Position numbers and translations under genes: made by a program. Positions 2,566-57,679 of a DNA stretch of 64,000 nt are shown one piece after another. The notes below the pieces were generated by a model. It saw only the letters and a program-made list of their open reading frames with translations. It had not been told where the DNA came from and made no database searches. How positions within the stretch are numbered: the first letter of the stretch is position 1; every line of letters begins with the position of its first letter. This DNA comes from PVC group bacterium (lineage in GTDB: Bacteria; Omnitrophota; Gorgyraeia; B26-G9): the NCBI GenBank assembly GCA_024231215.1, contig JAAEQR010000195.1, forward strand, positions 433,349 through 497,348, given 5' to 3'.

Positions 2566-3282
2566 TTGAGAAAAAAAGTAATTATCATATTATTGTTACT
2601 GTTGCTGGTTAATACTGGTACGGGGTTTGCACAGAGCGCGGGTGAATCTTCTCTTTTTAGCATTGAATTTATTGGGCAATTTGTTGGGGCCACATATACT
2701 TCGGTAATGATTCACGAGGCAGGTCATTATGATGAAGCTAATATAATGGGGGTTACTCCTACGATACATCTTGGATTTATGAAGCAAAAGTCAGGAGATG
2801 GCAGTTCTCATGTATCCTTGGGAGAAACTCGTTATGAAAGATATCCTCAAGATGCTAAAAAGAAAAGCCGGTTAGCTTTAGCCGGGATAGAGTCATCGCA
2901 CAAGATATATGAATCGCTTAATAATCAAATAATAAACGGGCAAGCCAATAGTCGCTTTGATTCGATGGTTGCGTTGTTTTGTAAGACTGATTTTCCCCGC
3001 TATGCATTTATTCATAGCCTTACTGAGAACCCCGGACAGGCTAATGATCTTGAATGTTATATTACAAATTCCGGTGCAGATAAAGAGTTTATTTATACAG
3101 CAGCTTTTTTAGATGTTGTTTTTAATTTGCCGGATATAGAATTTCATATAAAAAATGTTTTAGGCATGAATTCTCAAATGCCAAAATTAAGAGAAATTTG
3201 TGGTTTTAAAACTCAACCGCGTGTATTTGTCGAGAGATATGCGGGTATAGCTATTGGATTTGATTTAAGTAAGAAATGGTGA
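2566..3282 (+). CDS. secreted hypothetical protein with HExxH motif (putative Zn-metallopeptidase-like)
   Basis: TTG start. N-terminal signal peptide MRKKVIIILLLLLLVNTGTGFA|QS. HEAGH (HExxH) motif at residues ~50-54. C-terminal aromatic residue (…GFDLSKKW). No further family assignment possible. Confidence 0.4.
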   Translation: MRKKVIIILLLLLLVNTGTGFAQSAGESSLFSIEFIGQFVGATYTSVMIHEAGHYDEANIMGVTPTIHLGFMKQKSGDGSSHVSLGETRYERYPQDAKKKSRLALAGIESSHKIYESLNNQIINGQANSRFDSMVALFCKTDFPRYAFIHSLTENPGQANDLECYITNSGADKEFIYTAAFLDVVFNLPDIEFHIKNVLGMNSQMPKLREICGFKTQPRVFVERYAGIAIGFDLSKKW

Positions 3283-3585: not shown

Positions 3586-4986
3586 ATGAAGAAGAACAAG
3601 AAACAGTTTTTTATGTTTATTAGTAGTATTATTATTTTAAGCTTTATTATTATTGCCTCGTTTTGTGTTGCTCAACCTATAGTCGGGGAACAGTCGGAAG
3701 TGGCCGGAGAGTTTTTTGAAATGCCTGTTTCAGCCAGCAATTATTACTTTGCTAAGAGAGTGATCCAGACTTTTGGCGCTAAGTGGAGAGGTAATCCTAA
3801 AATTCCGGAAGAGCTGGAAGATCTGGTGTGGCAGGAATTATTATTTTCTTATGAGGCATTTAAAAGAGGAATTGAGGTAACCGAAGAAGAAATAGATGAA
3901 GAAATCGAAAAAACAATCAAGGCGCAAAAAGTTGAATTTAACTGGAGGACTGATAAAGATGAGTTTCAAAAATGGGTTGAAGAAACATTAAAAGTTCCGG
4001 TTGAGATGTTCAGGCATCAAATGGAACATTTAATAAAAATAGAAATACTACGCACAGAAATAATTGATAGTATAGAGCCGGAGGTTACAGAGGAAGAAAG
4101 CTATCAGAAATTTCTTAATGAATATAATACTTTGTTAGTGGAGCTGGTTCAGTTTGACGATATGGAGAAAGCAAAAGATTTTTATGAGCAGTCAGTTAAG
4201 CCTCTTGCAAAAACAGATTGGGAAAAATTAGTTTGGGACGAAAAAGTTCTTTCTTATGAAGCAACTAAACGAGGGATAGAGGTGCTGGATGAAGAAGTTG
4301 AAGCAGCTATTGAGAAAATAATGGTCTGGGATGAAAAACGTGTTCAGTGGAAAACAGATTCGGAAGCTTTTAAAACATGGATAATGGAAAGAACTGGAGA
4401 GACGGAAGATGATTTTCGAAAACATATCAAGTTGTTTGTTAAGATAGAAAAATTATTGAGAGCAATTAAAGCCGAAGAAGAACCGGCAATTAGTGATAAT
4501 GAGTATAAAGCAATGATTGATAAACATGGAACTATTAAAGAAGCTTATGCAAAATTCATTGCAGAGTATGAAATACCGCTAGGGGATGTACTTCATTTTG
4601 GTTCTTTAGAGCAGGCGATAGCTTATTATGAGAAACTGGGGAGAACTCCAGGTTTTTGGGAAGATAAAAAGAGAGAAGATCCTAAGTCGTTTAAGCGTCC
4701 TGGATTTGTAGCTTTAGATTTTCTGGTTAATATGTGGGGATTTCAGGTAGAAGATGCTTATAAAATGCTCGAGTGGGAATTAAATGCTTTTTATCCTCCG
4801 GCGCCTATTTATAAGGGATTTGGAGTGTTTAAAATTTTAAGAGTTCGCAGGGCAGACCCAGCGCAATATAAAGATAGAGAGGAATATTATCTTGATAGAG
4901 TTTCGAGAATTAAAAAACATGAAGGATTCAAGGACTGGGTGAAAACATTTACAGAAAGTGCTAAAATAAAGCGTTTTATCCCATAA
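3586..4986 (+). CDS. secreted protein with internally duplicated SurA-N/PpiC-chaperone-like segments
   Basis: Strong RBS (caggaggt) 8 nt upstream. Signal peptide/TM (FMFISSIIILSFIIIASFCVA). Two paralogous segments (VWQELLFSYEAFKRGIEVTEEEIDEEIEK…NWRTDKDEFQKW and VWDEKVLSYEATKRGIEVLDEEVEAAIEK…QWKTDSEAFKTW). No parvulin PPIase motif seen. The functional call is tentative. Confidence 0.4.
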   Translation: MKKNKKQFFMFISSIIILSFIIIASFCVAQPIVGEQSEVAGEFFEMPVSASNYYFAKRVIQTFGAKWRGNPKIPEELEDLVWQELLFSYEAFKRGIEVTEEEIDEEIEKTIKAQKVEFNWRTDKDEFQKWVEETLKVPVEMFRHQMEHLIKIEILRTEIIDSIEPEVTEEESYQKFLNEYNTLLVELVQFDDMEKAKDFYEQSVKPLAKTDWEKLVWDEKVLSYEATKRGIEVLDEEVEAAIEKIMVWDEKRVQWKTDSEAFKTWIMERTGETEDDFRKHIKLFVKIEKLLRAIKAEEEPAISDNEYKAMIDKHGTIKEAYAKFIAEYEIPLGDVLHFGSLEQAIAYYEKLGRTPGFWEDKKREDPKSFKRPGFVALDFLVNMWGFQVEDAYKMLEWELNAFYPPAPIYKGFGVFKILRVRRADPAQYKDREEYYLDRVSRIKKHEGFKDWVKTFTESAKIKRFIP

Positions 4987-4989
4987 AAT

Positions 4990-5490
4990 ATGGACAATGT
5001 TATTCTTAAGACAAAGATTGATGTTTACCAGGATCAATTAAAGAAAAATAAGAAGGTGCGTATTAAAGTTACCGGTAATTCAATGCTGCCTTTTTTAAAG
5101 AACGGGGAAGTGATTGTTGTTGAGCCTGTAACCGTAAAGAATCTTTTCCCCGGGGATGTTGCTCTGACTTATATCCAGGGGAGCGTGTTTTGTCATCGTG
5201 TTTTTAAAAATAACGGCAGAGTATTTCAGACCAAAGGTGATGCCTTAACCTTGCTTGATCCTCCGGCGACAGAAGAGAATTTAATCGGGAAAGCTACAGC
5301 ACGTGTAGTAGGGCTTAGGAATATGAAGCTTGCCAGGATCACAGGATTTTTGATCTCACGTATGAGTATAATTGCGGCATATGTATATATCCCTTTGCGA
5401 TTCATCAAAAGAATCTTTAAAAAAGTAATTATTGGGGAAGTAATACGGGATGAAAATACGCACCCAAAGCAGGGGCAGCGAGATAAATAA
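4990..5490 (+). CDS. S24/S26-family (LexA/signal-peptidase-like) serine peptidase
   Basis: GNSMLP motif (the Ser nucleophile motif of S24/S26 peptidases) with no N-terminal HTH. Starts 4 nt after the upstream gene's stop. Confidence 0.55.
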   Translation: MDNVILKTKIDVYQDQLKKNKKVRIKVTGNSMLPFLKNGEVIVVEPVTVKNLFPGDVALTYIQGSVFCHRVFKNNGRVFQTKGDALTLLDPPATEENLIGKATARVVGLRNMKLARITGFLISRMSIIAAYVYIPLRFIKRIFKKVIIGEVIRDENTHPKQGQRDK

Positions 5491-6700
5491 TTTTATTAGA
5501 GCACTTATTATAAAACCTTCCGAGTTTTCGTCTGGTTGTGAACATGATTTTTTAAATAATATTGATACTTCGACGTCGCTCAGTATTAACCCTGAGCAGA
5601 CTCCGGACGATAATCTGGGGAAAGTCGAATGGGTTGATTGGCAACTGTTTTTGGAGAGAGTTTTTACTGAAGGGGTAGCAGGGCTAATTTTTTTCAATTC
5701 TGTGCAGTTTAAGTTTTCGCAAATATTTCCTGAGAATGTTTATGAGAAGTTAAGGCATGATTATGAGAATACCACTGGTCGGAATATGGTTATTCTTAAT
5801 TGTCTTGAAGAAGTAATAGCGCGTTTTAAAGAAGAGTCTATTGCATTGCTTTTAATTCGCGGGATTGATTTTCTGAAAAATTTGTATGAAACTGCCGGAA
5901 TACGGGCAATGATTGATGTGGATATAGTGATTCATCGGGAAGATTTAACTCGGGTTGCTGATGTTTTTTCAGGGCTGGGGTATGAGCATCCGGAAGGATA
6001 TCCATATATTTTTTGTCAGGATGGTATTTTCTTCGATTTACATATTGATCGGGCTGGATTTTGGAGGATTGATTCCTGGCCGCAAGCGATAGGCATTAGT
6101 GAGCCGGATATTTGGAATCAGGCTTGTCCATTAGAAGATGAAGCCCCAAATATTAGGACTTTATCTGTTTACGATTCAATCCTGGTTTCCTGCGCGCATT
6201 TACAGGATCATTCCTATAGCCGGTTGATTTGGTTTGTGGATATTTGGTGTCTGATTAAAAAAGAAGCAAATGAGTTCGACTGGCAATATCTATTACAACG
6301 TGCGAAGCAATATAATTTGGAAAAACCGCTTTGTTTTACATTGAGATATCTATCTAAGTACGAATTTATAGATTTGCCGGATAATGTGAATTCTTTTTTA
6401 GATAAGTTGCCTTTGAATTTTATTGAATCAAGGTCGTTGCGTATGCTTTTAGCAGATAATCGACAGGCGGTTTCAGGGGATCTATTGTATTTATTTTCAT
6501 TTAAAACTCTTGCTGAGCGGTTGCGTTTTATCCGGCAGACAATATTTATTGAAAAAGATAATTTTCCTTTATTTGAACAAAAAATAACAGTTTGGGATTA
6601 CTTGCGTAGATTTTTTCGAATAGTGATGTATAGCGTTCGTAAGATGTTTGCGATACTTAACCCGGGAAATACGACCGAGCGTAACGACACAGATGTGTGA
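5450..6700 (+). CDS. nucleotidyltransferase-family protein (PF14907-like), RiPP-cassette member
   Basis: Pol-beta-like NTase core resemblance (…LLLIRGIDFLKNLYETAGIRAMIDVDIVIHREDL…). Sits directly upstream of an HprK-related kinase and a PqqD protein, the context in which this NTase family is typically found. Overlaps the upstream ORF by 41 nt; the true start may be internal. Confidence 0.45.
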   Translation: MKIRTQSRGSEINNFIRALIIKPSEFSSGCEHDFLNNIDTSTSLSINPEQTPDDNLGKVEWVDWQLFLERVFTEGVAGLIFFNSVQFKFSQIFPENVYEKLRHDYENTTGRNMVILNCLEEVIARFKEESIALLLIRGIDFLKNLYETAGIRAMIDVDIVIHREDLTRVADVFSGLGYEHPEGYPYIFCQDGIFFDLHIDRAGFWRIDSWPQAIGISEPDIWNQACPLEDEAPNIRTLSVYDSILVSCAHLQDHSYSRLIWFVDIWCLIKKEANEFDWQYLLQRAKQYNLEKPLCFTLRYLSKYEFIDLPDNVNSFLDKLPLNFIESRSLRMLLADNRQAVSGDLLYLFSFKTLAERLRFIRQTIFIEKDNFPLFEQKITVWDYLRRFFRIVMYSVRKMFAILNPGNTTERNDTDV

Positions 6701-6732
6701 TAATTTGTGCCCGCAGTAGATAATGGTATGAA

Positions 6733-7533
6733 ATGTTCGGGTGGAGACTTAAAATGAATGATATTTATTTGGATATATGTGGACATAAACTGTCTGTTTG
6801 CAGTGAAGATGAAGGTTTTATTGCAGAATTAAAAGACAAATATCGCAATTTTATAAGTAAACTCGAAGGTGATATAAATATTCTTGTAGCTCATAAACCA
6901 TTTAAAGATGAAGACAGCGATATTGTTGTGCAGAAAGAAGCCAAAGGGTATGTTATTACCGGTAATGAGATCGAGGCAAGGGTGGATGATTCCCTGGGGA
7001 AAATTAAACTCAAGATTCCCGCTAATGCAGGCACATTTGATTGTTTTTTGCGTATATTTTATTCTTTACTTTTGTTGGAAGATGATGCGTTTTTGATTCA
7101 TGCTGCGGGTTTGGCAAAAGCAGGCAGGGGAGTACTTTTTACCGGGCCTTCAGAAAGCGGAAAAACAACTACTGTTTCCAGAGCGGAAGGGCTTGATATT
7201 TTAAGTGATGAGCTTGTAGCAATAAAAGAAGATGACGGACAATTCTATCTTTTTTCAACGCCGTTTCATGGAGAATACAGAGGTGATGTTGCCTGTAAAT
7301 GTGTTCCTTTACAGAAAATATATTTTTTAACTAAAAAAGTAGTGGAGCAGAAACCTTTGAAGATATTGGAAGTATTTGTTGGCTTATTGGAAAATACATT
7401 TTTCTTTTATCGGAATAAGCAAGCTGATAAGAAAATTCTGGAGTTATGCCATAAGCTTTCAAAAAAAGTAGATGCATATCACATGAATATTTTAGCAGAG
7501 AGAAGTGTAGGGAGGTTGTTTAATGAAGTTTGA
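6733..7533 (+). CDS. HprK-related kinase (HPr kinase/phosphorylase C-terminal-domain-like)
   Basis: P-loop region LIHAAGLAKAGRGVLFTGPSESGKTTT followed by …DELVAI…, similar to the HPr kinase C-domain. Gene context with PqqD and rSAM/SPASM matches the HprK-related kinase families. Confidence 0.6.
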   Translation: MFGWRLKMNDIYLDICGHKLSVCSEDEGFIAELKDKYRNFISKLEGDINILVAHKPFKDEDSDIVVQKEAKGYVITGNEIEARVDDSLGKIKLKIPANAGTFDCFLRIFYSLLLLEDDAFLIHAAGLAKAGRGVLFTGPSESGKTTTVSRAEGLDILSDELVAIKEDDGQFYLFSTPFHGEYRGDVACKCVPLQKIYFLTKKVVEQKPLKILEVFVGLLENTFFFYRNKQADKKILELCHKLSKKVDAYHMNILAERSVGRLFNEV

Positions 7534-7804
7534 AAATATGTTGATTGGGCGCAGTGATCAGGCGGCTTGGCAGGAAGTTGAAGAGAATGTAGTTGTGGTT
7601 AATTCTAATACACGCAAAGTTCATATTCTTTCCGGTATTGGCGGGAGGATTTGGCAGATTTTAGAACATCCTAGGCAGCAAACAGATATTGTAAATGTAA
7701 TTATGCAAGAGTATGATGTTGCACGTGAGCAGGCGGAAAATGATGTGGATTCTTTTTTGCAGGAACTTGCTCAAAAGGAGATAATAAAGATAAAAGATGA
7801 ATGA
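7523..7804 (+). CDS. PqqD-family peptide chaperone (RiPP recognition element)
   Basis: 93 aa with a PqqD-like pattern (…VVVVNSNTRKVHILSGIGGRIWQILEH…IVNVIMQEYDV…DVDSFLQELAQKEII). Overlaps both neighbouring genes, which suggests translational coupling. Confidence 0.7.
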   Translation: MKFENMLIGRSDQAAWQEVEENVVVVNSNTRKVHILSGIGGRIWQILEHPRQQTDIVNVIMQEYDVAREQAENDVDSFLQELAQKEIIKIKDE

Positions 7805-8798
7805 TATCTGGAAACATGTGCGCAATACAATAGAAAATAAATATATTCCAATCTCAATGATACTGGAACTTACACGGCGGTGTAATTTGAATTGCTGTCA
7901 TTGTTATAATATTAAAAGCAACTCAGAGCTAAGTTTTCCTCAGATAAAAGAGATTAGCCGGCAGTTAAGAGATGCCGGATGTTTATTTTTGTTTCTCACC
8001 GGCGGGGAAGTTTTTTGTATGCCCGATTTTCTGGAGATCATTACTTATTTGCGGCGCGCTGGTTTTGATTTAAAGATTTTCACAAACGGAACATTGATAA
8101 CATCGGATCTTGTTTATAAGCTAGGGGATTTAGGTATTAGCGAAATAGGTATAAGTATTCAGGGAGCCGAACCAAAAACACATGATCGTATTTCCGGAGT
8201 TCCCGGAGCTTTTGAAAAATCAATAACTGCAATTAAAATGTTGAAGGAACGCGGGGTGCCGGTAAATATAAAATGCACCTTAATGAAAGAGAACTTTGCT
8301 GAATACAAGGACATTATAAAATTGGCAGAAAATTTAGGAGTTACTTATGTAATAGACCCGGTAGTTTCACCTCGTGATGATGGGTCCAGGGATGTGTTAT
8401 CCTGTCGTTTGGATGAAACTCAATTAAAGCAATTTTATAGCGAACAATTCTCTCGATTAGAAGTAACTAAAGTCGAGGAAAATTCTATTTGTGAAGCAGG
8501 GCGTACTTTTGGGAGCATATCTGCAGTCGGAGACGTATATCCATGTATTCAGATTCCCTTAAAAGTCGGTAATGTTTTTGAAAGAGAGTTTCTGGATATT
8601 TGGAGTGATGCCCAAATGCTTAAGAAGATGCGCAGCTTTAAATCATCTGAAATTAAGGCTTGTGTGGATTGTGATATGGTATCTTCCTGTTCAATATGTC
8701 CTGGGCTTGCTTACTTGGAAGACGGGGATCTTTTTGGGCCGGCTTCTATAGCTTGTTTAAATGCGCGTATTCAAAAAGAGGTGGAGAATGAAAAATAA
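7797..8798 (+). CDS. radical SAM enzyme with C-terminal SPASM/twitch domain
   Basis: CxxxCxxC near the N-terminus (RRCNLNCCHCYN). Additional Cys cluster at the C-terminus (C…CIQIP…CVDCDMVSSCSICPG). Confidence 0.8.
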   Translation: MNDIWKHVRNTIENKYIPISMILELTRRCNLNCCHCYNIKSNSELSFPQIKEISRQLRDAGCLFLFLTGGEVFCMPDFLEIITYLRRAGFDLKIFTNGTLITSDLVYKLGDLGISEIGISIQGAEPKTHDRISGVPGAFEKSITAIKMLKERGVPVNIKCTLMKENFAEYKDIIKLAENLGVTYVIDPVVSPRDDGSRDVLSCRLDETQLKQFYSEQFSRLEVTKVEENSICEAGRTFGSISAVGDVYPCIQIPLKVGNVFEREFLDIWSDAQMLKKMRSFKSSEIKACVDCDMVSSCSICPGLAYLEDGDLFGPASIACLNARIQKEVENEK

Positions 8799-10731
8799 AC
8801 TGGCAAATAAACTCCTGATACAGATGATTATTGTTGTAATGATCATTTCGGCAGTATTTTATTTTATTATCACTATGCAGGCTAAAGAATCGGAAAAACG
8901 GATATTTGATAAAGCTAAGCTTTTTTCAGCAATTCTGGGAGTTCATATGGACAGGATTGTTGGCGATAATTTGCTTGTTTATCAGAGTTTGCAGACTGTG
9001 GTTTCCGGATTGGCCAAGGCCGATGAGAAAATAGAGAAGATCAGAATTATTGCACCGGAGTCTATTGTATTGGCAGACAGTAATGAGGAGAGAATCTGGC
9101 AGACTGTGGTTTCCGGATATCGGGATGTAATAGAAACGGTGATAGAAACTGGGCAGGCAAAATCTCTTGTTAAAAAAGTATTGGGAAGAGAATTGGTGGT
9201 TCGTTTTATGCCTCTTTTTTCTGAAAAGGAAAAAGAGAATTTGATTGGGGTGATGCAGCTTAATGTGAAATTTTCTTCGCAGCAAGCTCAGGGCATGGCT
9301 TATTTAAGGAGTAATAAAGCGGCTTATTTTAAAGAGAATGCCGCAAGGTTGTCAAAAGAAGTGTCTGAAAATCTGCAAAATGTGCTTGACGATGTGGAAA
9401 GGAATTTTCATTACCTTGATGATTTGGTGGCTCGTATGATCAAGGATGAAGAAATCCAGGATATTAGATTTTTTTCTAAAGATCTGCGATTGCTGGGCTC
9501 GGGTAGTTCCGGAAGGCGTGCGTTACTTTATAGTGATAATGATACGGAATTTTATGAAAGAGTAATAAAAAACGGGAGTATTTTAAAAAGAAATATAGCA
9601 AAATCAGGGGTTGAAGTAGTAAGTCCTCTTTATGTACCGGGTGATACAGAAAAACAGGTGGGCGGAGCCGTGGGTATTACTCTTTCGCTGAAGCGTATTA
9701 ATGAATTAGTATTTTCCCGGATAAAGAATATTTTAATAATGAGTTTGCTTATTATTTGTGCGTTTTGTTTGCTGATCGGGGTGTTTTTCAAGCGGACAGT
9801 AATTGCTCCTTTAAATGGTCTTATGCAGATGGCGCAGCGTGTGGGTAAAGGAGATTTCTCTAAGAAAATACAGGTGGTGTCAAATGATGAGATTGGAAGT
9901 TTGGCCGAAGCTTTTAATCAAATGTCGGATGAATTAAAAAAATCAAAAGAACAGATAGAAGATTTTAATCTAGGTTTGCAGGAAAAAGTAGATAAGGCAA
10001 CCAAAGAATTAGAAGAAAAACAAGCTCAGCTTATTGAATCAGAACGCATGGCTTCGTTAGGAGTTCTTTCCAGCGGGATTGCACATGAGATAAACAACCC
10101 TTTGGGTGTAATTTTAGGGCATGCGCAGATGCTTTTAAAGGAATTAAAGACAAGGGGTGATTTAGAAGATGCGCAGGAAGCGGAAAAGTTGCTTAATACT
10201 ATAGAAGAATATGCAAGAAGATGTACTCATATAGTTAGAAGCCTGTTACAGTTTGCAAAAAAAAGAGAGATGCAGTTTAGTGAAACAGATGTAAGTTCAA
10301 CGGTGAGTAACGCCTTAATGTTTGCTGAAGGCCGCTTGAATAAAAAAGAAATCAAAGTGGGAAAACATTTAGCTTCGGATTTGCCTCCTGTTTTAGCTGA
10401 CGCGATACATCTTGAACAGGTTTTTATTAATATTATTTTTAATGCTGAGCAGAGTATGAATCAGGGTAGCAAGTTGGATGTATCTATTGAGCTTGAAAAA
10501 GGAGAAGAGATTGTAGTTGCTTTTCAGGATGAGGGAGAGGGGGTCTCGGAAGAAAATATTAAAAAGATATTCGATCCATTTTTCTCTACGCGAGAGCCGG
10601 GAGAAGGTGTGGGGTTAGGGTTATCGATTTCTTATGGGATAATTAAAGCGCATGGCGGAGATATTAATATCGAGAGTGAAGTTGGTAAAGGAACCAGGGT
10701 AAGTGTGAGATTGCCGGTTAAAAAGGGGTAA
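8788..10731 (+). CDS. sensor histidine kinase (2 TM, extracytoplasmic sensor, HAMP, HisKA, HATPase_c)
   Basis: H-box HEINNPLGVILGHAQML. HATPase G-boxes (DEGEGV…, GVGLGLSISYGIIKAHGG). TM helices at ~residues 15-40 and ~310-335 flank a ~270-aa sensor region. Likely start is ATG 8788 overlapping the upstream stop; the ORF track gives 8761. Confidence 0.85.
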   Translation: MKNKLANKLLIQMIIVVMIISAVFYFIITMQAKESEKRIFDKAKLFSAILGVHMDRIVGDNLLVYQSLQTVVSGLAKADEKIEKIRIIAPESIVLADSNEERIWQTVVSGYRDVIETVIETGQAKSLVKKVLGRELVVRFMPLFSEKEKENLIGVMQLNVKFSSQQAQGMAYLRSNKAAYFKENAARLSKEVSENLQNVLDDVERNFHYLDDLVARMIKDEEIQDIRFFSKDLRLLGSGSSGRRALLYSDNDTEFYERVIKNGSILKRNIAKSGVEVVSPLYVPGDTEKQVGGAVGITLSLKRINELVFSRIKNILIMSLLIICAFCLLIGVFFKRTVIAPLNGLMQMAQRVGKGDFSKKIQVVSNDEIGSLAEAFNQMSDELKKSKEQIEDFNLGLQEKVDKATKELEEKQAQLIESERMASLGVLSSGIAHEINNPLGVILGHAQMLLKELKTRGDLEDAQEAEKLLNTIEEYARRCTHIVRSLLQFAKKREMQFSETDVSSTVSNALMFAEGRLNKKEIKVGKHLASDLPPVLADAIHLEQVFINIIFNAEQSMNQGSKLDVSIELEKGEEIVVAFQDEGEGVSEENIKKIFDPFFSTREPGEGVGLGLSISYGIIKAHGGDINIESEVGKGTRVSVRLPVKKG

Positions 10732-10734
10732 AAG

Positions 10735-12129
10735 GTGAATAAAGAGTATATTCTAGTAGTAGATGATGAGCGTGGGATGCGTGAATACCTCAAAAAACTT
10801 TTAACAGATAACGGATATGCTGTAGTTGTAGCCAATAACGGGATGGAAGCTTTGACGCAGATAGAAAAAAAGATTCCAGTTTTAGCCATAATAGATTTCA
10901 AGATGCCCGGTATGGACGGATTGGAACTTTTGGCTAAAATAAAAGAGGTGCATCAACAGATAACCGTGATTATGATGACAGCTTACGGCACAATGGAAAA
11001 TGCGATAAAGGCGATGAAGCTGGGAGCCTATGATTATTTAAATAAACCATTTGAGCTTGATGAGATATCACTTGTTATTGATAAGGCTTTTGAAAAGAAA
11101 CGCTTGGAAGAGGAGAACATAGAGCTTCGCAGAGAGCTTAAAAAAGCTTATACATTTGAGGATATTGTTTCCAGTAATGACCAGATGCGTAATATTTTTG
11201 ATACGGTTCAAAAAATAGCGGATACTAAAAGTACTATTTTGATCCAAGGAGAAACAGGTACAGGTAAAGAGCTTATTGCCCGGGCTATACATAATCTGAG
11301 CCAGCGTAAAAACAATTCATTTATTCCGGTAGATTGCAGTGCGCTTACCACAAGTCTTTTGGAAAGTGAGCTTTTTGGTCATGTTAAAGGTGCGTTTACC
11401 GGAGCGAGTACGGATAAAAAAGGTCTTTTTGAGGCGGCGCATGGCGGAACTATATTTCTAGATGAAATAGGACATATTTCTTTGGAGATACAGTCAAAGC
11501 TGCTGCGTGTTTTGCAGGACGGAGAGATAAAAAGGGTGGGAGAGGCTTTAGCACGCAAGGTGGATATTCGTCTTATTGCTGCAAGTAATGAAAATTTAGA
11601 ACGCGCGGTAAAAGAAGGAAGGTTTCGCCAGGATCTTTATTATCGTTTAAATGTGGTGCCGTTGTCTTTGCCGGCTTTACGGGAAAGGACAGAAGATATT
11701 CCGATTTTAATCGAGCATTTTATTAAAAAATATAATCATATAGAAAGTAAAAAATTAGAGAATGTATCCCCGGAAGTTTTAAAGATATTGATGGACTATC
11801 AATGGCCGGGCAATGTGCGGGAGTTGGAAAATCTAATACACCGGGCAGTAGTTATGGAGGTGGGGCCGGTGATTTTACCTAGTGATTTGCCGGCAGGAAT
11901 AAGAGAGCCGCTGATTACTGCGGAGAGGCGAGATATCCTTTCCCGGACGAATAATTTTAGGAAAGCTAAGCGCCAGGCAATGGAAGCTTTTGAGCGGCGT
12001 TTCCTGGCTGAGTGTTTAATTCGAAATAAAGGAAACGTAAGTAAAACTGCAAAAGAGATGGGATTGGACCGGAGAAATTTACAGAGAAAATGTAAGTATT
12101 ATAAGATTAATCCGGGAGAATTTAAATAA
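10735..12129 (+). CDS. sigma-54-dependent response regulator (NtrC-family enhancer-binding protein)
   Basis: Receiver domain (…IIDFKMPGMDG…). AAA+ sigma-54 activator domain (GETGTGKE Walker A, ESELFGH, GAFTGA motif, FLDEIG Walker B). C-terminal Fis-type HTH. Confidence 0.9.
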   Translation: MNKEYILVVDDERGMREYLKKLLTDNGYAVVVANNGMEALTQIEKKIPVLAIIDFKMPGMDGLELLAKIKEVHQQITVIMMTAYGTMENAIKAMKLGAYDYLNKPFELDEISLVIDKAFEKKRLEEENIELRRELKKAYTFEDIVSSNDQMRNIFDTVQKIADTKSTILIQGETGTGKELIARAIHNLSQRKNNSFIPVDCSALTTSLLESELFGHVKGAFTGASTDKKGLFEAAHGGTIFLDEIGHISLEIQSKLLRVLQDGEIKRVGEALARKVDIRLIAASNENLERAVKEGRFRQDLYYRLNVVPLSLPALRERTEDIPILIEHFIKKYNHIESKKLENVSPEVLKILMDYQWPGNVRELENLIHRAVVMEVGPVILPSDLPAGIREPLITAERRDILSRTNNFRKAKRQAMEAFERRFLAECLIRNKGNVSKTAKEMGLDRRNLQRKCKYYKINPGEFK

Positions 12130-12151
12130 AAATCGTGACCTAACCCGATTC

Positions 12152-12201
12152 CACCTGCGCAAAAATTGTCGCGATGCGGCGAAAAATACGCATATTTTGC
12201 G
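12152..12201 (+). repeat. 50-bp direct repeat, copy 1 (cacctgcgcaaaaattgtcgcgatgcggcgaaaaatacgcatattttgcg)
   Basis: Identical to 17221..17270. Contains the inverted repeat TGCGCAAAA-N30-TTTTGCGCA. Begins 22 nt after the stop of the NtrC-family gene. Confidence 0.9.
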
Positions 12202-12231
12202 CAAAATTATCCTTACCTATAAATCCCCCAC

Positions 12232-12260
12232 TTGTAATTTTAAAAGACATAATGTATACT
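12232..12260 (+). promoter_or_regulatory. candidate sigma-70-like promoter (TTGTAA-N17-TATACT) upstream of the SecA-like gene
   Basis: -35/-10-like hexamers with a 17-nt spacer, ~95 nt upstream of the TTG start at 12355. Sequence match only. Confidence 0.3.
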
Positions 12261-12354
12261 TAAAACTTCTGCGGAACTCGTCCGAAAGATGATAAAATCG
12301 GAAGCTGCGCAGAGGCCTTAAGTATAAACTATCAGGTCTATTGTAATTTCTGGG

Positions 12355-15300
12355 TTGCAGTTAGAAGGTTGGCGAAAATTGAAGAGTATTAAACATCTGA
12401 TCATATTTTTTCTTATAAACACGATTATTTTATCAAACATCCCGCCAGTATTTGCTGAAAAAGCTTATAGCGTTTGTCTTTCCCCCGTTGTAACAATTAA
12501 CACTCCTGCGTTGAAATACAATTTTTCTCAGCTTGAGCTTGGCCGCTTACTAGAAACAACACAGTTAAATATTGAAGTAAATGGATTTATCAGAGATTTG
12601 TTTGGTAAAAATAGTAAGAATTTTGTGAATGCTACATTCAAAGGATTTAAAGTTGATTTGATCTCAGGGAGGGGATATCCTGTCGCAGATGAAATTGTTC
12701 CATTTAGATTGGATGATCATGGATATGTTCATCTGACCGAAAGCATGGCTCAACTGATTCAGGATCATCCGGATAGAGAAGAAATTTTATTTGAAATCGG
12801 AGTGCATTATACTCTTAAACTTAATTATAAAGTACTTGCGCAACATCATCCAAATAGCAAACATTATACACAACACAAGTTCAACCTTTTGTTAATTAGA
12901 GCTTTGCCAGATAATAGCGAAAGGGCGATTATTGGTAACTACCTTCCCATTATTTCTAATGGAGCTATTCAGCCAATTGATAGTTTGTTAGGTATTAGGG
13001 ATTATGTCGGTAATGATGACGTAGTATCCCATCATCTTGCATTATTATTCGAACGATATGCTCGCAGGAGACGTATTGGTTATCGAAAACCTGGAAGTTA
13101 TGAAGTGGTAAAAGGCAAAGAAACTTATATGGATTACTTTTATAATACTAAGCATGGTTTAAGTTTTCTGAGTGTTCCCGGGAAACTATCCGCGTTTTTA
13201 ATGTCTTTACAGATTAACGAAAATAATGTATCTGTCGGCCGCTATGATATATCAATAAATGATGTTAATAAAAATTTAAGATCTAATCTAGCCGGTGAAA
13301 ACATGCTTTTTGCTGCGGGGTCACTTTGCATGCACAATAATATGGAACGTTATAGAATAGAAGCGACGGTTCCCTTACTTACGAATGCGTTAGGCGATTT
13401 TAGAAATGATCCTCTGGTTGCCGGATTTTTAGCCTCAGTTACCGGAGATTTTGATATGTATTTTGTTAGGGATTTAATCGAAAAATTTAAAGGAGCCGAC
13501 CTTATTCAAATTGTCTATCAACTTCAAAGGCTTAGAAGAAAGGTAAGAAATGATTCTGATAAAGATTGGGATTTAAGTGAAAGTAAGCAATTTCATAGAA
13601 CTGTTGAACATGTTATGCGGACTTATTCGAAAAAAAATGTTTCCATGATTTTAGATAGTTTTGAAAAACTGGGAGATATATACAACTTGGTGAATGAATC
13701 ATATCGTCCGATGCATAAAGTAATGCCGATTCTCATCTTTATGACAGAGCTGATTTCACGAAGTGAAGATCCTTTAAGAGAAGTTATTGATCCATTACAT
13801 AGTTTTATTTCTACAGTCTCTCCGGCGCAGATTCTTGCTTGTTTGCCTCTTGTTGAAGGCACAGGAACCTTTGGTCTGGCACGTTTGCAAAGCTTAATAC
13901 AGAGATTCGGAAAATTTAATATTAATATCGCGGCTTTAGATATTGTCCCATGGATGAAATTAGCATATGTCGAGTATATTCTGAATCATAGCTCGGATCC
14001 AGAGCATGACTTAAAGCATCTAAATGTTTATCTAAGACATCAAATAGTTCAGAGGGATAGAGAAAACCTTATTCTTGATAATATGAAAAAACTCTATGAA
14101 ATTTATGACTTGCGGCGCGCTCATCATGCTTTATTTAATAATTTGGATCTCCAGTTTACGCCGGGCGAGATTATTGCTGTGGCAAATAAAAAACTAACTG
14201 CGGGGATGGAAAGAGACGGTTCTTATGTGCCATCCATACGGAATATTCGTCATGACCTAGATCAGAGAGGGAATTATAATTGGAATTCTGAGCGGGGAGA
14301 TGATATTGAATTATTGATCTATGGGCTTAACCATTTAAATGCTTCTGACGGGACGCTTATTGCTTTTCAAAAATACGAAAAGATTTTAATTCAATCTTTA
14401 ATTGCTCTAAAATTTGTTGTTGCTCAGGAAGAGTTATTGTTAAAACTTAGAGATCAATTGTTCCAAGTTATGGTTCGTTTTCTTTGCTTGAATAACGAAA
14501 CGGTAGATCCGCTTATCTTGCTCGGATATTTAAATACGATAAGCGAGCATATGAATTACGCTACCGCGGAATCTTTAATTAAGTTTTTAGATAAAATAGT
14601 TTCAAATGGGGATGTTGCTGGTCTGGATAGATTGTTGGAAGAATTAGCTTACTCTGCCGACTGTATGCCTGCCAGAGAAGCAAAGGCAATTATTCGTCAG
14701 TATATTAGTGAGGTTGAGGAGGGTGGAGTGCAGCAAACACTTACCAGATTGATTGCATTACGTGTTGAGTATGAACAGAAGAGATTCCCTGAGGAGGAGC
14801 AATCAATATCAAACATGGTGGCTCAGATTAAAGGCTTGCCTGCTACAGACCAGAAAAGACTAGAGGATGAAATACAAACAGTACTAGGTCACGAAAAAAC
14901 AATAATAAAGATGAGCGATTCTGAGATTAAAAAAAGAGTCAAAGCACTTAAGATTCAAGTGCAAAGAAAAGAGGTGCTTTTTGAGGATGTTAAGCTTTTA
15001 TATTTGGCCTATATCAGAGAGATTGCTAAAAGAAAATACGGGATGAGAGCTTACAATATCCAATTAGCCGCGGTCCTTCTTTTCTTTTATGAGGGAGATT
15101 TTAATAAAAGGGGGTTGGTTCAAGAAATTAAGACAGGTGAGGGCAAATCGCTAATTTTTGCCTTAACAAATAGTTTAGCTGCTTTGACGGGCAAACCAGT
15201 GGATGTTTTTACGGTAAATACATATCTTGCCGCTCGTGATGCCGAACAATTTAAAGTTTTGTATAATTTTTTAGGATTAACTGTTGCCTATTTAAAAGAC

Positions 15301-17193
15301 AATCAAGATGAGGGGCTAGTCGCAGTTAATGAACAATCTTTTGCCGCGGATATTGTCTATGGAACGAATTCCAATTTTGAGTATATATACCTCCTGGAAT
15401 GTATTAGTCAACAACCTATACGTGCGAAAGATGTCGCTGGCAAAACAAAACGGCGGGAATTTGCCATGGCTGTTGTTGATGAGGTCGATATGTTGTTTTT
15501 GGATGAAGCGCTTAATACACATACGATAGCCCGGCCTGATAATATTTTTCCGACTTGGCCGTTCAAGCCGATCTGGAAATTCTTCAATGAATTGGTTCTC
15601 AATATTGATTATAAGGCTGAAGGCCTAACTAATAGAGGAAAAATAAAATATTCTGAGTTCATAGGGCAGTTATACAAGAAAGAAGGAAAAGGGAAGGAGC
15701 TATTATCCGAGAGTCAATTAAAAAGATTCGCTCAATCCGCCCTAATTGCACTGCGTTTAAGAAAAAATCAGGATTATGTTGTAAAAGAAGCAATCAAGAG
15801 GCGTCCTGAAAGAACGATTTGGAGCGGGAAACGTAAGGCTCAAGATGAAGTGATTATTGTTGTGCAAGAAACAGGTCGAAAACACTTCGGCTCATTGTGG
15901 TATGACGGGATTCATCAGTTTGTCGAGTTAAAAGAAGGGATGAAACCAAGTCTAATGAATCGATCGATAGCCTCAATTACACGTCCTTTTTATTTTAGTA
16001 AGTATGAGAAACTATTTGCGCTTACTGGGACGATTGGATCCGAGACAGATGCCTGGGAATTGCAAAAGATATATGGAGTAAATTCGCTTTGTCTTCCTCC
16101 ACATAAGCATTCAAAGCGTGAAGACAGAGAAGATTTAATCCTGGATACATTAGAGCAAAAATGGACAGAAGTTATCCAAAGCATTCAAGCCGAACATAAT
16201 AAAGGACGACCTGTGTTAGTAGGAGTGAGAACGATAGAGCAGTCTGTTAAACTTCACCGGAAACTTGAAGAGGAAACAAGGATTGATGCCCAGCTTTTAA
16301 ATGGAGAGCAAGGCACTCCGGAAGCGCAGATTATAAAGCAGGCAGGTTTAAGCGGAACGGTAACGATTGCCACCAATTTGGCGGGACGAGGAACAGATAT
16401 ACTTCTCGGTAAAGGTGTCGAAGCGCGGGCTGGTTTGCATGTTATTGGAACGGAGCGTTTTAGATCCAGGCGAATTGATGACCAGTTAAAAGGAAGAGCG
16501 GGTAGGCAGGGGCAGCCGGGAAGTTCTCAATTCATTATCTCTCTTGAGGACGAGGCATATCGCAGCTATTTAGATCAGGAGAAGTTAAGGAAACAGCAAG
16601 ATCATGCTAAGAGAAAACAGGCTGTACAGGATGTTCAAGAAAAATTAGATGTTGCTTCTTTTGAAAGGCGGGTTAGGGTTTTCCGCATTTGCTCTATTCA
16701 GGATAGGCAAATGACGGATTTTTTCAATGAGATAGAGCGTCTTTTTAATATGAAGAGAATAGATAAAATTTTCCCGGAAATTATTCCGGAGTATAATCGA
16801 CCATCTCTGCTTGGAACTGATGAAAGAGCTTCTATATTTACAATAGTAGAGGCAGGGGATGTGTGTTTTGAGGGCTGGATAGCTCATTTGCAGTTATTGG
16901 AAGAGTTGAGGAAAGCACTTGAATTTGAATCATCTGAAACCTTTGAGTCTGGTCTAGAAATATATCAGGAACAGGCGGAAAAAAGTTTTAAGAATGTTAT
17001 GAATGAATTACGGGAAAAGGTATATCTATTATATGCGGAGTTATCGGGGTTGGATCAAGTTGAAGTTGTCAAAAGGGGCAATGATTTTGAACAAACTGGC
17101 GTTACTCCGACACAAAAGCCTTTAATTGATGGAATGGAACTATTCCAAGTAGAAAATCAAATAATTGCGGCTATGCTTGAGCAAGCAGTTTAA
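12355..17193 (+). CDS. N-terminally extended SecA paralog (SecA2-like preprotein translocase ATPase fused to an ~880-aa unknown N-terminal region)
   Basis: From residue ~890 the SecA motor is collinear with E. coli SecA. NBD1: GMRAYNIQL and Walker A KTGEGKSL, VNTYLAARDAEQF…FLGLTV, DIVYGTN, VVDEVDMLFLDEA. PPXD: DYVVKE…VIIVVQETGRKHFGSLWYDGIHQFVELKEG…SITRPFYFSKYEKLFALTGT. NBD2: RPVLVG…TIATNLAGRGTDILLG, LHVIGTERFRSRRIDDQLKGRAGRQGQPGSS. A shortened helical scaffold follows, with no Zn-finger tail. TTG start; an alternative TTG at 12379 gives MKSIKHLIIFFLINTIILSNIPPVFA|EK, a signal/anchor-like segment. Confidence 0.8.
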   Translation: MQLEGWRKLKSIKHLIIFFLINTIILSNIPPVFAEKAYSVCLSPVVTINTPALKYNFSQLELGRLLETTQLNIEVNGFIRDLFGKNSKNFVNATFKGFKVDLISGRGYPVADEIVPFRLDDHGYVHLTESMAQLIQDHPDREEILFEIGVHYTLKLNYKVLAQHHPNSKHYTQHKFNLLLIRALPDNSERAIIGNYLPIISNGAIQPIDSLLGIRDYVGNDDVVSHHLALLFERYARRRRIGYRKPGSYEVVKGKETYMDYFYNTKHGLSFLSVPGKLSAFLMSLQINENNVSVGRYDISINDVNKNLRSNLAGENMLFAAGSLCMHNNMERYRIEATVPLLTNALGDFRNDPLVAGFLASVTGDFDMYFVRDLIEKFKGADLIQIVYQLQRLRRKVRNDSDKDWDLSESKQFHRTVEHVMRTYSKKNVSMILDSFEKLGDIYNLVNESYRPMHKVMPILIFMTELISRSEDPLREVIDPLHSFISTVSPAQILACLPLVEGTGTFGLARLQSLIQRFGKFNINIAALDIVPWMKLAYVEYILNHSSDPEHDLKHLNVYLRHQIVQRDRENLILDNMKKLYEIYDLRRAHHALFNNLDLQFTPGEIIAVANKKLTAGMERDGSYVPSIRNIRHDLDQRGNYNWNSERGDDIELLIYGLNHLNASDGTLIAFQKYEKILIQSLIALKFVVAQEELLLKLRDQLFQVMVRFLCLNNETVDPLILLGYLNTISEHMNYATAESLIKFLDKIVSNGDVAGLDRLLEELAYSADCMPAREAKAIIRQYISEVEEGGVQQTLTRLIALRVEYEQKRFPEEEQSISNMVAQIKGLPATDQKRLEDEIQTVLGHEKTIIKMSDSEIKKRVKALKIQVQRKEVLFEDVKLLYLAYIREIAKRKYGMRAYNIQLAAVLLFFYEGDFNKRGLVQEIKTGEGKSLIFALTNSLAALTGKPVDVFTVNTYLAARDAEQFKVLYNFLGLTVAYLKDNQDEGLVAVNEQSFAADIVYGTNSNFEYIYLLECISQQPIRAKDVAGKTKRREFAMAVVDEVDMLFLDEALNTHTIARPDNIFPTWPFKPIWKFFNELVLNIDYKAEGLTNRGKIKYSEFIGQLYKKEGKGKELLSESQLKRFAQSALIALRLRKNQDYVVKEAIKRRPERTIWSGKRKAQDEVIIVVQETGRKHFGSLWYDGIHQFVELKEGMKPSLMNRSIASITRPFYFSKYEKLFALTGTIGSETDAWELQKIYGVNSLCLPPHKHSKREDREDLILDTLEQKWTEVIQSIQAEHNKGRPVLVGVRTIEQSVKLHRKLEEETRIDAQLLNGEQGTPEAQIIKQAGLSGTVTIATNLAGRGTDILLGKGVEARAGLHVIGTERFRSRRIDDQLKGRAGRQGQPGSSQFIISLEDEAYRSYLDQEKLRKQQDHAKRKQAVQDVQEKLDVASFERRVRVFRICSIQDRQMTDFFNEIERLFNMKRIDKIFPEIIPEYNRPSLLGTDERASIFTIVEAGDVCFEGWIAHLQLLEELRKALEFESSETFESGLEIYQEQAEKSFKNVMNELREKVYLLYAELSGLDQVEVVKRGNDFEQTGVTPTQKPLIDGMELFQVENQIIAAMLEQAV

Positions 17194-17220
17194 ATATCCT
17201 ATAATCATTCCGAAGTGGCG

Positions 17221-17270
17221 CACCTGCGCAAAAATTGTCGCGATGCGGCGAAAAATACGCATATTTTGCG
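17221..17270 (+). repeat. 50-bp direct repeat, copy 2 (candidate enhancer/UAS or REP-like element)
   Basis: Perfect copy of 12152..12201. Lies 27 nt after the SecA-like stop and ~100-150 nt upstream of the sigma-54 promoter at 17370. Confidence 0.9.
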
Positions 17271-17369
17271 TATTTTTATTCTCGTCAATAAAACCCTCCA
17301 AAACTCAAAACATAACAGCTTTGTTTTTAAGTAGTTATGATTTATGTTTTATTTATAAAATCATATTTC

Positions 17370-17385
17370 TGGCATGATATTTGCT
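17370..17385 (+). promoter_or_regulatory. sigma-54 (RpoN) -24/-12 promoter of the giant gene
   Basis: TGGCATGATATTTGCT matches the consensus TGGCACG-N4-TTGCW with correct GG/GC spacing. An RBS (aaggagt) and the ATG at 17430 follow ~45 nt downstream. Confidence 0.65.
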
Positions 17386-17429
17386 TTTATAAAATAGACT
17401 GAATATAACTATCACAAAGGAGTAAGATC

Positions 17430-55883: not shown

Positions 55884-56579
55884 TCATCCTTCTTGTTTTG
55901 ATAGTTCTTGTCGTAAAATTATGCGGCTGTCATAGACAAGTAAGCAAAAACGAATTAGATTAGTAGCTAAAAGTATATTTGCTCCGGAGTAAAGGATGAT
56001 TTTTAAATATGATAGTGTTATTTCTGTTCCGGAGAGAGATTGTAAGGATATGACTATTCCACCTAAGAAAAAGATAGCTATTTTAAGGATTAAGTATGCT
56101 ATGCGGGAAAATTTGGAAGCGACTAATGCTTTTCCGAGTTTAGACTGGTGCATGGAGAAAGTGGAAATCCCCTGTCTTACCCAGAGAAATCTTATGAAAT
56201 CAGAAATTAATGAGCGGGCGATGAAAATAAGTGGCACATATATAGGGATTAGTCGAACAAAGGCAAAAAAGATAAGCAGTAGGTTTTCGGTTATTCTATC
56301 GCCTAAAGTGTCTAACATGCCTCCGACTAATGATGATGTATTATTTTTTCTGGCTAAATAGCCGTCTACTCCGTCAAGTATCGCGGCAACACCTAATAGT
56401 ATTACCCCTATGATGTTGTGCGTGAATGAAGGCATAGAAAAGAGTACGAGTACAATAAAAACCAGAATGATTCTGATAAATACTATTGTGTGAGCAATGT
56501 TATTAGTGAGCCACTTGAGCATATTTATGGGCCTCGGTAAAAGATTTGTATAGAGAACCGGCAATAGCACTATAAGCAT
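55884..56579 (-). CDS. CDP-alcohol phosphatidyltransferase family protein
   Basis: Signature D-G-x2-A-R-x8-G-x3-D-x3-D is present (DGVDGYLARKNNTSSLVGGMLDTLGDR). The start may be the internal Met MLKWL… to reduce overlap with the upstream gene. Confidence 0.65.
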   Translation of the reverse strand: MLIVLLPVLYTNLLPRPINMLKWLTNNIAHTIVFIRIILVFIVLVLFSMPSFTHNIIGVILLGVAAILDGVDGYLARKNNTSSLVGGMLDTLGDRITENLLLIFFAFVRLIPIYVPLIFIARSLISDFIRFLWVRQGISTFSMHQSKLGKALVASKFSRIAYLILKIAIFFLGGIVISLQSLSGTEITLSYLKIILYSGANILLATNLIRFCLLVYDSRIILRQELSKQEG

Positions 56580-57579: not shown

Positions 57580-57595
57580 ATATAAGTAATGGTAG

Positions 57596-57628
57596 GGGCG
57601 GATTCTTGTATCCGCCCGATATTTTTTT
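57596..57628 (+). terminator. intrinsic-terminator-like hairpin 1 (gggcggat-tcttgt-atccgccc followed by T7)
   Basis: 8-bp GC-rich perfect stem, 6-nt loop and TTTTTTT on the + strand, but no + strand gene ends just upstream. Confidence 0.4.
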
Positions 57629-57647
57629 AGTATATAACAATCAGGAA

Positions 57648-57679
57648 CAGATTTCAAGGAGATTGAAATCTGCTTTTTT
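57648..57679 (+). terminator. intrinsic-terminator-like hairpin 2 (cagatttcaa-ggaga-ttgaaatctg followed by CTTTTTTG)
   Basis: 10-bp perfect stem, 5-nt loop and a T6 run on the + strand, ~110 nt upstream of the 57790 gene. Confidence 0.4.

Follow-up and report, generated by a model that had tools for sequence, protein, structure and literature searches.

The window analysed here is a stretch of 64,000 nucleotides (nt) from an Omnitrophota genome (assembly GCA_024231215.1, contig JAAEQR010000195.1, positions 433,349 to 497,348), in which a sensor histidine kinase gene and the gene of an NtrC-family activator are followed by a SecA-like gene and then by a giant gene encoding a protein of 6,807 amino acids (aa). 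Comparison with related loci makes it likely that the kinase and the activator switch on the giant gene by way of a conserved 37-bp element, which would serve as upstream activating sequence (UAS), and a sigma-54 promoter, and that the insertion of the SecA-like gene duplicated the 50-bp repeat in which this element lies. Two-component control of the giant gene had been proposed in a sequence-only reading of the window. The relatives conserve both the promoter and an element at a set spacing from it, as that proposal would have it, whereas the dyad that it had named, the role that it gave to the first repeat copy and the inclusion of the SecA-like gene did not stand. The features on which the argument turns are the following.

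8788-10731, plus strand: sensor histidine kinase gene (first transmembrane segment, extracytoplasmic domain of ~280 aa, second transmembrane segment, HAMP, HisKA, HATPase_c)
10735-12129, plus strand: gene of an NtrC-family sigma-54 enhancer-binding response regulator (receiver, AAA+ domain with GAFTGA, Fis-type helix-turn-helix (HTH))
17225-17261, no strand assigned: 37-bp element, the proposed UAS, consisting of the dyads TGCG-N10-CGCG (17225-17242) and TGCG-N10-CGCA (17244-17261)
17370-17385, plus strand: sigma-54 (-24/-12) promoter TGGCATGATATTTGCT, one mismatch to TGGCAC-N5-TTGCW, GG and GC 10 nt apart
17417-17422, plus strand: Shine-Dalgarno sequence AAGGAG of the giant gene, read from the sequence
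17430-37853, plus strand: giant gene, the proposed target (6,807 aa; signal peptide, tandem repeats, Golvesin_C, C-terminal beta-propeller)

Gene order around the activator in related loci

The comparison set consists of ten loci around orthologues of the activator (57-71% identical; L001, L003, L004 and L085-L091), which were obtained through exact-protein look-ups of these orthologues; L002 and L003 are one contig in two sources and were counted once. A core of a gene cassette, the kinase and the activator is common to all ten loci, and the giant gene comes next in each of the nine that have downstream sequence. The spacer between the activator and the giant gene is available in nine of the ten, as L089 ends before any giant gene. 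The usual order opens on the minus strand with DegT and an ABC transporter, followed by the cassette, which is peptide-maturation-like, the kinase, the activator, a spacer of variable content and a gene of ~6,000 aa; the outer genes deviate from it in L086, L087, L089, L090 and L091. In L089 a membrane-protein gene follows the activator, and no 37-bp element occurs before the end of the contig. The content of the spacer in the window and the other nine loci is as follows.

L004, L087, L088, L090 and L091: empty
L001: 157-aa Zn-ribbon gene
L003 and L085: Y1 transposase gene
Window: SecA-like gene
L086, 11599-18449: ~7 kb with almost no called genes after the conserved sigma-54 promoter, then a gene of at least 2,169 aa

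The gene-poor 7 kb of L086 may represent the beginning of a giant gene that has decayed or was miscalled. The Y1_Tnp genes (IS200/RAYT-like) of L003 (11497-12348) and L085 (11462-12352) lie between the activator and the 37-bp element, and the insert of L003 is bounded by a repeat of its own, ATAAGTAACA...AAGCAATGCTTGAAATGTA (~11423-11455 and 12548-12580). A further Y1_Tnp gene, in L088 (9054-9938), sits between the kinase and activator genes.

A conserved sigma-54 promoter precedes the giant gene

Sigma-54 promoters strictly require an enhancer-binding protein for their activity. In the window, TGGCATGATATTTGCT lies 45 nt before the giant-gene ATG at 17430, as the sequence-only reading had stated. 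The description of this site as a textbook promoter stands with regard to its position and conservation, while the match count alone is unremarkable: with at most one mismatch to the consensus there are 3 matches in the 64-kb window against 1.8 expected. Because this count is close to chance, the promoter call needed outside support, and its significance derives from the position of the site and its conservation in the related loci. In 8 of the 9 loci, TGGCA[CT]-N5-TTGC[TA] occurs a few tens of nucleotides before the codon at which the giant gene is likely to start, the match in L087 being degenerate only. When a 20-nt profile was built from these eight loci, positions 17368-17387 of the window scored highest on either strand of the 64 kb, with 18.2 bits. 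On this comparative evidence, the promoter upstream of the giant gene is real.

A second good match to the consensus, at 2616, was rejected as it falls inside a signal-peptide coding region. In L003, tandem repeats of ~27 nt (agtatgctaagaaatatgaaaaagga...) occupy 12790-12965 and separate the promoter from the start that was called for the giant gene; translation may actually begin there at an ATG 43 nt past the promoter.

A 37-bp element keeps its distance to the promoter

Upstream of the promoter, the window and all nine related loci with spacer sequence share an element of exactly 37 bp that follows the formula TGYG-N10-CRCA-N-TGNG-N10-CRCA. It is composed of two abutting 18-bp dyads, TGYG-N10-CRCA, whose centres are 19 bp apart. 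Ten positions are invariant in the ten-locus alignment (G2, G4, C15, C17, G21, G23, A33, C34, C36 and A37), and the four 4-bp blocks carry 1.3-1.8 bits per position compared with 0.3-0.6 in the flanks; the spacers are 73-80% AT. With leave-one-out profiles the element was the top match on both strands in every locus, at 19-37 bits, with runners-up at 5-12 bits. This top rank on both strands, far above the runner-up, characterises it as a unique dyad-symmetric site within each stretch of 12-64 kb. L091 was fetched later and kept outside the profile; its top match (31 bits) is located 1 nt past the stop codon of the activator and is followed, 120 nt further along, by a sigma-54 promoter. A single dyad is far less specific, TGYG-N10-CRCA having 4 matches in the window against 1.9 expected, with the two outside the repeat falling into coding sequence, and a profile of one 18-bp dyad was too weak to detect remnants of the element beside other inserts.

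The distance from the centre of the element to the GG of the -24 box is 128, 129, 130, 130, 130 or 131 nt in six of the sequences, 118 nt in one and 140, 141 or 144 nt in three, the steps among these values being about one helical turn; the window, at 128 nt, belongs to the first group. This agrees with the earlier placement of the second repeat copy at enhancer distance, the centre of the 50-mer lying ~126 nt before the -24 GG. Measured from the activator stop codon, by comparison, the distance to the element ranges from -7 nt in L090, where the two overlap, to 5,095 nt in the window. All inserts between the activator and the giant gene (in L001, L003, L085 and the window) are located upstream of the element, which therefore stays with the promoter. 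No other argument favours an enhancer over a terminator as strongly as this tie to the promoter and not to the upstream 3' end.

The conserved element differs from the dyad that had been singled out in the window alone, TGCGCAAAA-N30-TTTTGCGCA. The latter is complete only in copy 1 of the repeat, with its last two bases outside the 50-mer, and is not a conserved dyad; in copy 2 the sequence is TTTTGCGTA, and AAAAATACGCA and TGCGTATTTTT pair in a local hairpin instead. A further occurrence of TGCGCAAAA at 39216 is unrelated.

A 13-mer, TTTTATTGATTTT, stands just downstream of the element in the distantly related L001 (11976-11992) and L086 (11481-11497). It loosely resembles a site for integration host factor (IHF) and was not found in the window.

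The activator and its partner kinase

The activator is a protein of 464 aa with Pfam matches to Response_reg (2e-31, residues 6-113), Sigma54_activat (2.7e-71) and HTH_8 (2.7e-7, residues 416-454). It had been read as an enhancer-binding protein with receiver, GAFTGA motif and Fis HTH, the sole one in the window, and all of this was confirmed; no second enhancer-binding protein is encoded within the 64 kb. The phospho-acceptor D54 in IIDFKMPGMDG is invariant across 11 orthologues, and the best matches in the PDB are NtrC1, NtrC4, LuxO and NtrX. About 45 orthologues are 58-71% identical to the activator and the next-best proteins reach at most 52%; all orthologues named in their source are from Omnitrophota/Omnitrophica. 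Scores against the NCBIfam equivalog models, given with the respective cut-offs, were 500/714 for AtoC, 434/559 for NtrC, 415/600 for NtrX, 411/503 for PrsR, 380/800 for LuxO, 377/760 for ZraR and 356/763 for GlrR. As it remains below every one of these cut-offs, the activator falls outside all named subfamilies and is, judged by sequence relationships, a distinct Omnitrophota orthologue group.

The HTH is conserved across the orthologues, and its recognition helix LDRRNLxRK is essentially invariant (LDRRNLQRK in the window). Where x is His (L003, L004, L085 and L088), position 3 of the half-site is T and block 1 reads TGTG or CGTG; where it is Gln (six proteins), the position is C and block 1 reads TGCG or AGCG. 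This covariation of recognition helix and half-site is only suggestive in its support for a pairing of the activator with the element.

The kinase has significant Pfam matches to HAMP (1.8e-16), HisKA (2.1e-14) and HATPase_c (1.7e-24), and a match to dCache_1 below the cut-off. Two hydrophobic segments enclose ~280 residues, in accordance with the large extracytoplasmic domain that had been described. A longer open reading frame (ORF) for the kinase, from 8761, reaches into the 3' end of the preceding radical-SAM gene. A gene for a HAMP/HisKA/HATPase_c kinase was called at the corresponding place in all ten related loci, and in the three for which the proteins were aligned (L001, L003 and L004) the orthologues are 49-60% identical. 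Searches for related loci that started from the kinase were uninformative: the full alignment yielded generic patterns (GIAHEINN) and returned only paralogues of at most 43% identity, and the sensor domain alone gave 600 pattern matches, none of which was confirmed.

A SecA-like gene lies between two copies of the repeat

The 50-mer CACCTGCGCAAAAATTGTCGCGATGCGGCGAAAAATACGCATATTTTGCG, which consists of the 37-bp element with 4 nt on its 5' side and 9 nt on its 3' side, occurs exactly twice in the window with 0 mismatches, where 0 occurrences are expected by chance. The perfect direct repeat reported earlier is thus present as described. The features of this region are listed below.

12152-12201, plus strand: copy 1 of the 50-bp repeat (core 12156-12192), 22 nt after the activator stop codon
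12202-12229, plus strand: diverged extension of the repeat beyond copy 1, 17/28 identical to 17271-17298 (p ~0.002)
12232-12260, plus strand: sigma-70-like promoter candidate TTGTAA-17-TATACT from a consensus scan (9/12 matches; such sites are as frequent as expected by chance)
12379-17193, plus strand: SecA-like gene (1,604 aa; signal peptide, N-terminal domain of ~800 aa, SecA motor)
17221-17270, plus strand: copy 2 of the 50-bp repeat (core 17225-17261), a perfect copy

The two copies exactly bracket the SecA-like ORF, with a start-to-start distance of 5,069 nt. The upstream edge of the repeat is sharp (0/10 identical), and downstream the repeat can be extended to 76 nt at 87% identity, similarity ending beyond a tail of ~26-28 nt. 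Copy 1 lies near the ancestral position of the element, 22 nt past the activator stop codon, and its core scores 37.0 bits with the profile derived from the other loci. The element is found as a single copy at the same place in the nine unduplicated loci, which indicates that it is older than the insertion and not mobile cargo.

The SecA-like protein is identical to the NCBI protein GY853_12975 and matches SecA_DEAD (1e-56) and P-loop_SecA (1.2e-48) of Pfam. No full-length homologue was found; a search with the N-terminal 820 residues retrieved five relatives at E <=0.001 among 1.84 billion representatives, four of which are proteins of 1,520-2,345 aa, three of these four with a SecA motor, in agreement with the divergent SecA modules described from giant proteins of Omnitrophota. 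All ten related loci lack the gene, and as their spacers contain a different insert or none, it is a lineage-specific insertion. The SecA-like protein is the only product of the insert, in which no recombinase or transposase was found. Between copy 1 and the SecA-like gene (12193-12378), neither the consensus nor the profile gave a sigma-54 promoter, the best score being 2.0 bits compared with 18.2 bits for the giant-gene promoter. The site at 12232-12260 might, as a weak inference from its sequence, serve as promoter of the SecA-like gene. The leader of this gene also contains a 30-nt imperfect inverted repeat (12249-12332; 77% complementary, 24-nt loop) that overlaps the -10 candidate.

The lack of a sigma-54 promoter after copy 1 and the absence of the gene from the related loci speak against the earlier suggestion that the SecA-like gene shares the control of the giant gene, and we conclude that it is probably outside of it. 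Similarly, the duplication of the UAS is best read as a by-product of the insertion and not as the independent placement of two enhancers.

Alternative readings of the element and the repeat

With both copies of the 50-mer beginning 22-27 nt past a stop codon, the element could in principle be an RNA feature, namely an intrinsic terminator or 3'-stabilising hairpin of the kinase-activator operon (and of the SecA-like gene). Copy 2 would form an 11-bp AU-rich hairpin followed by Ts, and the versions of the element in L086, L004 and L091 fold as long hairpins with interruptions, each followed by a stretch rich in T (energies of -14 to -20 kcal/mol, z of -2.9 to -4.4). In L087, L088 and L090, however, folding is weak (-4.5 to -7.9 kcal/mol, z > -1) despite conserved blocks, the z values across the loci extending from -0.4 to -4.4. 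The 10-nt spacers are not complementary, and the mismatches between the blocks comprise ~10 non-wobble pairs versus 4 G-T pairs. A scan for plus-strand terminators gave no site at either copy, and Rfam has no family matches anywhere in the window. The fixed distance to the promoter and the variable distance to the upstream stop codon (-7 to 5095 nt) also disagree with a terminator, as does the overlap of the element with the activator stop codon itself in L090. L087 has separate classic terminators, GC-rich hairpins with a T-run, between the activator and the element, which means that the element is not needed as a terminator there. We regard an RNA feature as the primary function of the element as unlikely; a secondary terminator role could exist in some genomes, as the folding of individual copies suggests. 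It is similarly improbable that the element is the operator of another protein, be it a repressor, a nucleoid protein or another activator, and that the two-component system regulates something else. Dyad symmetry and a fixed promoter distance would suit any promoter-linked regulator, but the element accompanies the activator orthologue in 10 of 10 loci with spacer sequence, and no gene for another DNA-binding regulator is consistently present in the cluster. The activator is moreover the only enhancer-binding protein in the window, and a sigma-54 promoter needs one. The position ~128 nt from the -24 box and the tandem 4-N10-4 arrangement match known sites of NtrC-family proteins, and the residue in the recognition helix tracks the base in the half-site.

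Two further readings concern the 50-bp repeat. Perfect direct copies around one lineage-specific gene, in a spacer where relatives carry other inserts, Y1 transposase genes among them, are what would be seen if the 50-mer were a repetitive extragenic palindromic (REP)-like or miniature inverted-repeat transposable element (MITE)-like repeat, or if it represented the att-type core of a mobile cassette, with its proximity to the promoter being incidental. Such an origin is very unlikely, given that the 64 kb contain just two copies, which share one spacer, and that the core is single-copy in nine related loci without the duplication. The insert is devoid of a recombinase or transposase, and the Y1 inserts of L003 and L085 are flanked by unrelated repeats of their own. 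The central 20-mer TGTCGCGATGCGGCGAAAAA also had 0 matches in 596 Gb of genomes and in the JGI metagenome collection. The sequence-only reading had offered a REP-like or terminator element as its alternative; with two copies in one spacer, promoter-linked spacing and mixed folding, this is poorly supported. We give as little credence to the direct repeat being an assembly artefact, in which a 5,069-bp graph cycle, for example from a variant present in part of the population, was threaded into the contig through the shared 50-mer. The assembly is of the short-read metagenome style, and a cycle would be expected to leave the observed pattern, one unit flanked by an exact repeat whose upstream edge is sharp. 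Against this, similarity goes on in diverged form for ~26-28 nt past the perfect part, which would not result from a graph artefact. In its base composition the insert does not stand out from its surroundings, and the same spacer accepts insertions in related loci. To our knowledge, 50 bp is neither k nor k-1 in the default k-mer series of common assemblers, which counts against an artefact as well.

Several observations weigh against control of the giant gene by the kinase and activator as we propose it, or limit its force. The evidence is comparative throughout, consisting of the features, their conservation, their spacing and the specificity of the profile matches. The loci are not all independent, as the activators of L003 and L085 are 92% identical, and all four activators that carry His in their recognition helix belong to one clade, so that the match of Gln/His with C/T represents a single evolutionary event. 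A Pfam scan of those ORFs in the 64-kb window that have 100 aa or more found no rpoN gene, and a Sigma54_DBD gene was seen in the related locus L089 only. In L004, L086 and L091 the element, folding to an interrupted hairpin followed by Ts, may possibly act as terminator of the activator operon too, and a different DNA-binding protein could recognise it. The copy counts refer to the 64-kb window, and further copies in the genome are possible. Finally, 50/50 identity beside a tail that has diverged by ~39% is beyond what selection on a binding site alone would bring about. If the tail is truly homologous (10 differences in 26-28 nt versus 0 in 50), gene conversion would be implied; if its similarity is due to chance, the duplication would simply be recent.

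The giant gene and its neighbours

The giant protein contains ~23-30 tandem repeats of 119 aa (357 nt). The repeat unit, with 23 internal repeats used as alignment, was predicted as an Ig-like beta-sandwich with a predicted local distance difference test score (pLDDT) of 95, whereas a single-sequence model of two repeats was unusable (pLDDT 39). The nearest folds in the PDB are those of the S-layer protein SbsC, filamin and intimin D00, with marginal Foldseek E-values of 5e-4 and weaker. Downstream of the giant gene, genes follow for a BamB-like propeller, a secretin, PilM/N, GspE, GspF, pseudopilins and GspK. Radical-SAM genes are also found at 50197-51354 and 56503-57687, one of them with SPASM, beyond this type II secretion-like cluster and among tetratricopeptide repeat and glycosyltransferase genes.

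On the other side, the conserved cassette lies directly 5' of the kinase-activator pair.

3586-8798: conserved cassette of SurA-like, S24 peptidase, NTP_transf_5, HprK-related ScmC, PqqD and radical-SAM/SPASM genes

The cassette overlaps the kinase gene in the window and in some of the related loci, which indicates that cassette and kinase-activator pair are probably co-transcribed. It resembles the NCBIfam 'SynChlorMet cassette' (ScmC, ScmE/F) and is peptide-maturation-like; no conserved precursor-peptide ORF was found in the related loci, and a literature search for SynChlorMet and ScmC matched only unrelated acronyms. In L089 an rpoN-like Sigma54_DBD gene (3705-4796, 363 aa) is located inside the cassette, where it replaces the S24 peptidase gene. 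At the 5' end of the cassette in the window, positions 2566-3282 encode a secreted protein of 238 aa with a HEAGH motif, which is without a match in Pfam or NCBIfam and is absent from all related loci. By this distribution, the gene is another lineage-specific insertion.

Comparison with known systems

The closest parallel in architecture is GlrK/GlrR (QseE/QseF) of Enterobacteriaceae, in which GlrR binds several TGTCN10GACA sites upstream of the sigma-54 promoters of glmY and glmZ, conserved together with the promoter across species (PMC3045617). Both systems combine a membrane kinase with an NtrC-family regulator and several 18-bp dyads of the 4-N10-4 type before the -24/-12 promoter. They differ in the half-site, which is TGTC/GACA for GlrR and TGYG/CRCA here, and in the arrangement, which is of three spread-out sites in one and two abutting sites in the other. 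No IHF sites were identified here, and the target there is a small RNA and here a 20-kb gene of a surface protein. With a score of 356 against an equivalog cut-off of 763, the activator is not GlrR.

At glnAp2, the promoter controlled by NtrB/NtrC, paired dyads lie ~100-140 bp upstream of the sigma-54 promoter and act through DNA looping, and NtrC enhancers still work when they are kilobases away. The Omnitrophota activator shares with NtrC the receiver, AAA+ and Fis HTH domains and the paired upstream dyads, and by analogy we propose looping here as well. The activity of NtrC enhancers at kilobase distance leaves room for a weak contribution of repeat copy 1. In other respects the two systems are distinct: the NtrC site is TGCACC-N5-GGTGCA and the site here TGYG-N10-CRCA, NtrB is cytoplasmic and the kinase here has a large extracytoplasmic domain, and the activator scores 434 with a cut-off of 559.

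PrsK/PrsR of the PEP-CTERM systems is a third point of reference, as PrsR (NCBIfam TIGR02915, 'PEP-CTERM-box response regulator transcription factor') is among the better matches of the activator, with 411 bits and a cut-off of 502.6. The targets of PEP-CTERM regulation are cell-surface or secreted proteins. The neighbours here are the radical-SAM/PqqD cassette and the type II secretion-like cluster, and no PEP-CTERM or exosortase features turned up, though no dedicated search for them was made.

Giant genes with divergent SecA domains beside type II secretion genes have been described in Omnitrophota (West-Roberts et al., 2023, bioRxiv 10.1101/2023.11.21.568195). The locus in the window resembles them in phylum, in the giant extracellular protein, in the divergent SecA motor without the canonical C-terminal parts and in the cluster of secretin, GspE, GspF and pseudopilins. 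The SecA module here is a separate gene of 1,604 aa, and the predicted proteins highlighted in that study exceed 30,000 aa, compared with 6,807 aa here. Sigma-54, promoters, two-component systems and NtrC are mentioned neither there nor in a 2026 preprint on complete Omnitrophota genomes.

Proposed mode of control and its implications

In the mode of control that we favour, the phosphorylated activator would bind the 37-bp element at 17225-17261, about -150 from the start site predicted near 17395-17397, and assemble into an ATPase ring. Looping of the AT-rich spacer would then allow the ring to remodel sigma-54 RNA polymerase at TGGCATGATATTTGCT, so that the giant gene would be transcribed only when the kinase senses an extracytoplasmic signal. 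The SecA-like segment of 5 kb would have been inserted between the activator and the element, leaving one copy of the repeat on each side. Copy 2 would thereby keep its working distance to the promoter, and copy 1 would most likely be a leftover, or at most a distal extra binding site. The SecA-like gene would probably be transcribed from a promoter of its own or by read-through of the activator operon.

A wider and doubtful extension of this proposal would have the cassette make a modified peptide or envelope cue that the kinase senses. The whole 35-kb region would then be an autoinduction or prey-contact switch for a giant Ig-repeat protein exported via the adjacent type II secretion-like machinery, and the gap between activator and enhancer would be a tolerated landing pad for cargo such as the SecA-like gene, the Zn-ribbon gene and the Y1 transposases.

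The mechanism that we propose for the giant gene is a standard NtrC-type enhancer acting on a sigma-54 promoter; the novelty lies in the target, in the phylum and in the definition of a 37-bp site. As the mechanism is a textbook one, the value of the finding is to be sought in the biology of the target and not in any advance of principle. The Omnitrophota are bacteria of ultra-small size that have not been cultivated and that probably live as predators or parasites. With an activator of 464 aa, a site of 37 bp and a promoter of 16 bp, the module is compact and portable, and it provides a search rule for this phylum: two copies of TGYG-N10-CRCA located ~130 nt upstream of TGGCA-N6-TTGC would point to co-regulated genes. 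The presence of such a conserved module before the giant gene implies that its protein would be made on demand, upon an external signal.

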